Below, one piece after another: positions 1 to 854 of a stretch of 854 bases of DNA. The position numbers and the translations under genes are program-made. Source of the DNA: Escherichia coli (GTDB taxonomy: Bacteria; Pseudomonadota; Gammaproteobacteria; Enterobacterales; Enterobacteriaceae). Where the stretch lies: NCBI RefSeq assembly GCF_003334815.1, contig NZ_QOWO01000116.1; one strand, written 5' to 3'. Under the pieces are notes generated by a model, which was not told the DNA's origin, searched no databases, and worked only from the letters and a program-made list of their open reading frames with translations. Position 1 is the first letter of the stretch. Every line of letters begins with the position of its first letter.

Positions 1-62
1 CGCGAGGCATCGTCTTAACGAGGCACCGAGGCGTCGCATTCTTCAGATGGTTCAACCCTTAA

Positions 63-854
63 GTTAGCGCTTATGGGCTGGTCACCCACTGGCACTATGA
101 CGAAGCAGACCGCCTCACGCACCGCACCGTGAATGGCGAAACCGCAGAGCGGTGGCAGTATGACGAACGCGGCTGGCTGACAGACATCAGCCATATCAGC
201 GAAGGGCACCGGGTGACGGTGCACTATGGTTATGACAGTAAAGGCCGCCTCGCCAGTGAACACCTGACGGTGCATCATCCGCAGACGAATGAACTGCTCT
301 GGCAGCATGAGACCAGACATGCGTACAACGCACAGGGACTGGCGAACCGCTGTATACCGGACAGCCTGCCCGCCGTGGAATGGCTGACCTACGGCAGCGG
401 TTACCTGGCAGGCATGAAACTCGGCGACACACCGCTGGTGGAGTACACCCGCGACCGCCTGCACCGGGAAACGCTGCGCAGCTTCGGCCGTTATGAACTC
501 ACCACCGCTTATACCCCTGCCGGGCAGTTACAGAGCCAGCACCTGAACAGCCTGCTGTCTGACCGCGATTACACCTGGAACGACAACGGCGAACTCATCC
601 GCATCAGCAGCCCGCGCCAGACCCGGAGTTACAGCTACAGCACCACCGGCAGGCTGACCGGCGTTCACACCACCGCAGCGAATCTGGATATCCGCATCCC
701 GTATACCACAGACCCGGCAGGTAACCGCCTGCCCGACCCGGAGCTGCACCCGGACAGCGCCCTCAGCATGTGGCCGGATAACCGTATCGCCCGTGACGCG
801 CACTATCTTTACCGGTATGACCGTCACGGCAGGCTGACAGAGAAAACCGACCTC
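63..854 (+). CDS. Rhs-family YD-repeat protein, core (shell) region; 5'-truncated fragment, 3' end continues beyond window; possibly a pseudogene or orphan core remnant
   Basis: Seen in sequence: frame 3 is open from codon 63-65 to 852-854 (264 codons, no stop). Translation contains repeated YD-repeat motifs: [10 protein letters not shown] (87-116), [10 protein letters not shown] (153-182), [10 protein letters not shown] (222-251), YNAQGL (324-341), [11 protein letters not shown] (567-599), [10 protein letters not shown] (630-659), [10 protein letters not shown] (702-731), [15 protein letters not shown] (810-854). The motif YxYDxxGRLTEK is characteristic of enterobacterial Rhs core proteins (established knowledge). 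GC content is about 60-68% in the segments I counted by hand, typical of the GC-rich Rhs core. Start coordinate 63 is the first codon after the in-frame TAA at 60-62; recognisable Rhs sequence begins near 75. No in-frame ATG/GTG/TTG lies between 63 and the GTG at 129-131; the first ATG is 414-416, and none has a convincing Shine-Dalgarno. An annotation pipeline might instead call a start at 129 or label the region a pseudogene. A truncated mid-core start is reminiscent of rhsE in E. coli K-12, but I cannot verify the paralog. Confidence 0.88.

Follow-up and report, generated by a model that had tools for sequence, protein, structure and literature searches.

An AT-rich patch beside an Rhs core fragment belongs to the terminal inverted repeat of IS186/IS421 and is not a compositional island boundary

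The stretch of DNA analysed here (854 nt, called the window throughout) is very probably the right-hand junction of an IS186/IS421 element that inserted midway through an Rhs core gene, in an rhsC-like allele of Escherichia coli or a close relative, and we put the probability of this reading at about 95%. A short AT-rich patch near the start of the window had been taken, in a sequence-only reading, as a sign that the boundary of acquired or rearranged Rhs DNA lies near positions 60-75. These letters are the terminal inverted repeat of the IS element, not the boundary of a compositional island. The features of the window on which the argument is built are given below.

1-52, plus strand: right (transposase-distal) end of IS186/IS421, non-coding subterminal part
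53-75, plus strand: right terminal inverted repeat of IS186/IS421, 23 nt, CAACCCTTAAGTTAGCGCTTATG, 43.5% GC
47-72: AT-rich patch named by the sequence-only reading, ATGGTTCAACCCTTAAGTTAGCGCTT
76-85, plus strand: right-hand copy of the target-site duplication, GGCTGGTCAC, whose left copy lies outside the window
76-854, plus strand: internal fragment of an Rhs core open reading frame, of the RhsA/B/C/F core type, in frame 3 with its first full codon at 78

Much of the evidence comes from loci in which a similar arrangement can be seen at full length. A set of 5,426 complete E. coli genomes was surveyed with a 150-nt junction probe and with a probe for the opposite orientation, and 37 of these genomes carry the IS at the same site of the Rhs core, 20 in the orientation of the window and 17 in the opposite one. 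By megablast, the window is matched from end to end without a break in 11 genomes, with an IS421 transposase gene situated between two halves of an rhs pseudogene. Six or more Rhs loci have been hit, in both orientations and in both core subfamilies. The interrupted loci, and the site that they share with the window, are as follows.

kdpF-ybfA (rhsC): L001, L006 and L007, same orientation as the window
yibF-yibA: L003, orientation opposite to the window
rpmE-yiiX: L004, same orientation as the window
ybbP-ybbC (rhsD): L008, same orientation as the window
upstream of pptA: L009, same orientation as the window
next to yeeJ: L011, orientation opposite to the window
hot-spot site: window 75-89, GGGCTGGTCACCCAC; also L001 (4726-4737 and 6075-6086), L003, L004, L006-L009 and L011

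Positions 1-75 had been regarded as upstream flank. Instead, they match the transposase-distal end of the IS without a single mismatch in seven to nine loci, including L001, L004, L006, L007, L008, L009 and L010, the last of these being the lon-promoter IS186 copy of BL21(DE3). IS186/IS421 is a 1,339-bp member of the IS4 family that encodes a DDE transposase. The annotation of the related loci agrees with this identification, given that RefSeq names the intervening gene an ‘IS4-like element IS421 family transposase’, and the IS open reading frame of L006 scores 133.3 bits (cut-off 115) against the IS4-family transposase model NF033592. This gene lies outside the window, and its stop codon falls about 97 nt ahead of the window start in the related loci. 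In every one of those loci, the left end, CATAAGCGCTAACTTAAGGGTTG, is perfectly reverse-complementary to positions 53-75, and a repeat search on a related locus returned inverted arms of 24 nt that are 100% complementary. The distance between the two ends is 1,339 bp, or 1,338 bp for L001, and the element has a GC content of 51.2%. Judged by this identity, positions 1-75 are the right end of IS186/IS421.

The remainder of the window belongs to an Rhs core. Frame 3 is open from position 63 through to the end of the window, which stops inside the core, and the reading frame is closed upstream by a TAA at 60-62 that is located within the terminal inverted repeat. The translated fragment matches the NCBIfam model NF041261 (RHS_core) with an E-value of 7e-165 over profile positions 700-964 of 1,261; its score of 550.8 bits falls short of the cut-off for whole proteins (2,000) for the sole reason that the fragment is 264 amino acids long. 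The YD repeat model TIGR01643 is matched at 39.3 bits, with a cut-off of 15.8. Matches to intact rhs genes among the 5,426 complete genomes start at window position 75 when examined by megablast. A complete Rhs open reading frame would have an N-terminal region, a PxxxxDPxGL motif at the end of the core and a C-terminal toxin tip, and the window holds a fragment that falls short of this. The equivalent halves in related genomes are likewise listed in RefSeq as pseudogenes that are ‘incomplete; missing N-terminus’. A scan of the window with Rfam returned no RNA family. A 149-amino-acid antisense open reading frame that runs across the junction between IS and Rhs DNA (15-464, minus strand) was considered and set aside as most likely a by-product of the GC-rich Rhs gene on the opposite strand.

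Positions 76-854 match rhsC of strain X14-3 with 100% identity, and K-12 rhsC with four mismatches. The cores of rhsA, rhsB, rhsC and rhsF are about 99% alike, such that a best match to an rhsC allele only suggests which Rhs locus the window derives from. When the window is compared with other IS-bearing loci, the mismatches are clustered, with approximately 20 in 224-338 relative to L006 and L007, and approximately 12 in 401-559 relative to L001, L003 and L004. This clustering suggests that the Rhs cores may be mosaics made by gene conversion.

The two unrelated DNAs do meet near where the sequence-only reading had proposed, and homology places their meeting point exactly at 75/76. However, this point is not an edge of the Rhs element, but is located in the middle of a core open reading frame. 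The insertion point lies at approximately codon 695 in rhsC, a gene of 1,397 codons, and K-12 rhsC runs uninterrupted across the site as GAGGATGAGGGGCTGGTCACCCACTGG. Beyond the 1,339-bp IS, seven related loci carry the first 2.1 kb of this Rhs open reading frame.

The sequence that borders the IS has the features expected of a target-site duplication. The 10 nt GGCTGGTCAC flank both IS ends in L001, L003, L004, L006 and L007, and a repeat search on a related locus finds a direct repeat of 12 nt with a spacing of 1,349 nt. The duplication can alternatively be drawn as window positions 75-86, GGGCTGGTCACC, with an ambiguous terminal G and C that leave its length at 10-12 bp. Together with the bases that follow, the copy in the window makes up the right part of the target GGGG-CTGGTCA-CCC. 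Intact K-12 rhsC contains GAGGGGCTGGTCACCCACTGG once. A mapping study of 59 new IS186 insertions (Lee et al. 2016, PMC5009759) defined a highly specific target, 5′-GGGG(N6/N7)CCCC-3′. As this motif is a palindrome, it serves in either orientation, and 7 of the 59 mapped sites departed from it at one or two positions. The Rhs target, GGGG-CTGGTCA-CCC(A), has an N7 core and a single mismatch to the motif (CCCA for CCCC). GGGG(N6-7)CCC occurs only once in the 4.2 kb of K-12 rhsC, and this occurrence is the Rhs target site. The same geometry is seen for the lon-promoter copy of BL21, where the target is GGGG(ATGTTT)CCCC and the duplication begins two bases into the G run.

These findings bear directly on the proposal that 60-75 is the edge of an acquired or rearranged GC-rich Rhs element, set against lower-GC chromosomal flank and marked by a step in composition. 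In its favour, unrelated DNA does begin at 75/76, and the Rhs core is GC-rich relative to its surroundings (62% versus 31-56% for the neighbours in L006, where kdpA is at 56% and adjacent non-core DNA at 31-40%). However, the upstream DNA is the end of IS186/IS421, the junction falls at about position 700 of the 1,261 positions of the RHS_core profile, and the core resumes past the IS in related loci. The fact that intact rhsC reads through the site already refutes the proposal, as does the perfect match between 1-75 and the IS end. Moreover, positions 1-46 are as GC-rich as the core, the window shows no significant change in composition, and the true edges of the core are elsewhere. We consider the Rhs-edge explanation to have almost no chance of being correct.

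The composition of the window was examined over segments of 26 nt and 60 nt, by shuffling, by Fisher tests and by a change-point scan. The hand counts that underlay the proposed step are accurate on recomputation, with 11 of 26 letters being G or C in 47-72 (42.3%), and with values of 60.0% for 481-540 and 68.3% for 601-660. What they reveal is not a step but a short dip, since 1-46 has a GC content of 60.9% and 76-854 has 61.9%. The dip is approximately 35 nt wide and GC-rich on both sides, and its lowest 26-nt window (37-62) is at 38.5%. A dip of this size is not beyond chance, given that in 5,000 mononucleotide shuffles, 91.5% of the shuffled windows held a 26-nt stretch with at most 10 G+C letters. 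The scale of local GC noise can also be seen within the Rhs coding sequence itself, where a 26-nt stretch in 216-245 is equally AT-rich (42.3% GC). The difference in GC content is not significant between 1-75 and 76-854 (Fisher p = 0.17), nor is it between 40-75 and 76-140 (Fisher p = 0.059). The best point in a single change-point scan is 328, not 75, and its likelihood ratio was matched in 810 of 1,000 shuffles; the likelihood ratio at 75 is 1.03. The sequence-only reading had stated that its step would be refuted by a GC profile with no significant change across 40-140, and this is what the computed profile shows, such that the compositional signal fails within that interval. Nowhere in the window is there a sustained, statistically supported change in G+C content, which is what defines the boundary of a compositional (horizontal-transfer) island. 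The junction at 75/76 is visible by homology and not by composition.

A GC and GC3 profile with several kilobases of flank had also been suggested as a check, and we ran it on L006, a related locus at the rhsC position. The GC content of its successive segments is as follows.

kdpA: 55.8%
ybfA region: 39.8%
rhsC 5′ half: 62.4%
IS: 51.2%, with 46-50% across its last 500 nt
Rhs core past the IS: 58-66%
C-terminal tip and ybfB: 31-47%

On the kilobase scale, there is indeed a step where the IS meets the Rhs DNA, from 51.2% in the element to approximately 62% in the core, but the sharp edges of the core are elsewhere. One is the start of rhsC, approximately 2-2.1 kb upstream of the IS, and the other is the junction between the core and the C-terminal tip, approximately 1.5 kb downstream of the window junction. 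GC3 values are 75.7% for the Rhs frame of the window, 44.2% for the IS transposase and 65.4% for kdpA. The claim that Rhs cores are GC-rich is thus upheld by this locus, although the AT-rich patch is unfit to serve as evidence of a horizontal-transfer boundary.

Another way to explain the junction would be an error of assembly, in which a short contig mis-joins reads from an IS186 end and from an Rhs core. The window is only 854 nt long, each of its parts belongs to a multi-copy repeat (the median number of Rhs-core places per genome is seven), and short-read assemblies break or mis-join at such repeats. However, the join coincides to the base with the terminus of the IS and with the known target motif, and the identical junction is present in 20 closed genomes, two of which are 100% identical across window positions 1-150. 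A chimera would not reproduce a junction that is both base-exact and recurrent, and we regard an artefact as extremely improbable. The window may nevertheless be a short contig that is bounded by two repeat families.

Some points do stand against the reading of the window as an IS186/IS421 insertion junction. The window contains a single IS end and a single copy of the duplication, the target is one base away from the canonical motif, and the window as a whole reaches no more than 97.8% identity in any complete E. coli genome searched. Because its X14-3-identical allele and the IS are combined in no complete genome, 97.8% being the best whole-window identity, the window may represent a further insertion event, or a strain or allele combination that was not sampled. 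Each part of the window is found separately at 100% identity in complete E. coli genomes.

The absence of this combination from complete genomes also lends something to a further alternative, in which IS186 inserted and then recombined with another IS186 copy by deletion or inversion, so that DNA other than the Rhs 5′ half would now adjoin the far end of the IS and a true 5′-truncated Rhs ‘orphan’ would be left behind. Recombination between IS copies is common in E. coli, with 98 events recorded in a mutation-accumulation study (PMC5009759), and only one junction is contained in the window. However, a simple insertion with the duplication intact was seen in all seven related loci whose two IS ends were inspected, and the window bears no sign of rearrangement. 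A secondary rearrangement therefore seems improbable to us, and the reading of a simple insertion is retained. We infer from the related loci that the 5′ half of the Rhs gene lies beyond the IS in the genome from which the window came; the window itself holds one IS end and one copy of the duplication.

The insertion can be accounted for by ordinary target-directed transposition of IS186. The transposase recognises a palindrome of a G run and a C run, GGGG(N6/N7)CCCC, represented in this Rhs core by GGGG-CTGGTCA-CCC, and its staggered cut of the target leads to the duplication of approximately 10-12 bp. The terminal inverted repeat is the binding site of the transposase. As a consequence of the insertion, the Rhs open reading frame would be split into a 5′ part, which takes in the N-terminal region along with half of the YD-repeat shell, namely the first, and a 3′ fragment, which starts in the window and would carry the remaining shell and the C-terminal toxin tip. 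No start codon in the Rhs frame is present at the junction, where the ATG at 73-75, in the IS end, is in frame 1 and opens a reading frame of only 21 codons. Likewise, a search of positions 1-300 for promoter-like or terminator-like sites, from which the Rhs fragment might be expressed again, found none. Because the 3′ fragment is preceded by the in-frame TAA at 60-62, and has neither a start codon at the junction nor a promoter-like site in 1-300, the toxin is most likely neither made nor delivered any more.

The IS end of the window closely resembles IS186/IS421 copies at GGGG(N6/N7)CCCC targets, such as the one that occupies the lon-promoter hot spot in E. coli B/BL21. Identity extends over the terminal 75 nt, which include the 23-nt inverted repeat, and the window and its related loci share with insertions of this type the element length (1,339 bp, from the related loci), a target made of a G run, a 6-7 nt core and a C run, a duplication of 10-12 bp, and the use of both orientations. 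Unlike the canonical targets of IS186, the one in the window falls within a repeat that is itself coding sequence, namely the Rhs core, and departs from the motif by one base (GGGG-N7-CCCA), and only the right end of the element is present.

The Rhs elements of E. coli (rhsA-F) have a GC-rich core open reading frame, an AT-rich C-terminal toxin tip and an immunity gene. Window positions 76-854 resemble these elements in being core sequence of 62% GC and 76% GC3 with YD repeats, and with clustered mismatches as for mosaic cores. In contrast to an intact rhsA-F gene, the core is interrupted, and both the core start and the junction between core and tip lie outside the window. The fragment also resembles the 5′-truncated ‘orphan’ Rhs genes (ybfO next to rhsC, for example), as it is without an N-terminus and a start codon, and as a toxin tip and an immunity gene are found downstream in related loci. 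Rhs orphans arise by displacement or recombination, and they start much later in the core. Unlike these orphans, the fragment in the window starts precisely where an IS terminates, with a target duplication, and the half that it lacks should, judging from the related loci, be 1.3 kb away.

Other IS elements are also present at these loci. IS1-family insertions are found in or just past the Rhs tip and orphan regions of L007 (7948-8645), L004 (7581-8273) and L005 (8894-9591), and remnants of ISAs1 (H-repeat) transposase genes flank these regions. Rhs loci appear to gather IS elements generally.

Both components of the window and the mechanism that joins them are already known, and insertions of this kind are already present in RefSeq annotation. 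The sole mildly new point is that the Rhs-core site is a natural IS186 hot spot in a repeat gene, because it is the only GGGG(N6-7)CCC motif in K-12 rhsC. This single GGGG(N7)CCC site is conserved as GGGGCTGGTCACCC in cores of the A/B/C/F type and as GGGGCTTATCACCC in those of the D/E type. RhsD/E-type cores share approximately 86-90% identity with the window, and where the IS resides in them, the duplication reads GGCTTATCAC and again matches the local sequence. Given that the duplication matches the local sequence, and that both orientations and both core types are represented, several independent insertions must therefore have occurred, with at least one for each orientation and core type.

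It is tempting to speculate that the Rhs site is a recurrent landing pad for IS186 that acts as a mutational on/off point, at which Rhs toxin genes of natural E. coli are split again and again in independent events, possibly under selection, such that, for example, a costly toxin is shed while the immunity gene is kept. We consider this rather unlikely. In a limited, non-exhaustive search of the literature on IS186 and rhs, we found no description of such a recurrent landing pad.

For annotation, the window is correctly labelled ‘IS186/IS421 right end, then rhs core pseudogene fragment’; beyond this, the finding has little import. As a practical lesson, a 26-nt dip in the GC content of DNA that is 61% GC is within noise, and the terminal repeats of IS elements are a common cause of sudden breaks in homology inside repeat genes. 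The recurrence of the insertion among E. coli Rhs loci follows from known biology, in that it illustrates the target specificity of IS186, and it is a possible source of both Rhs inactivation and assembly breaks.
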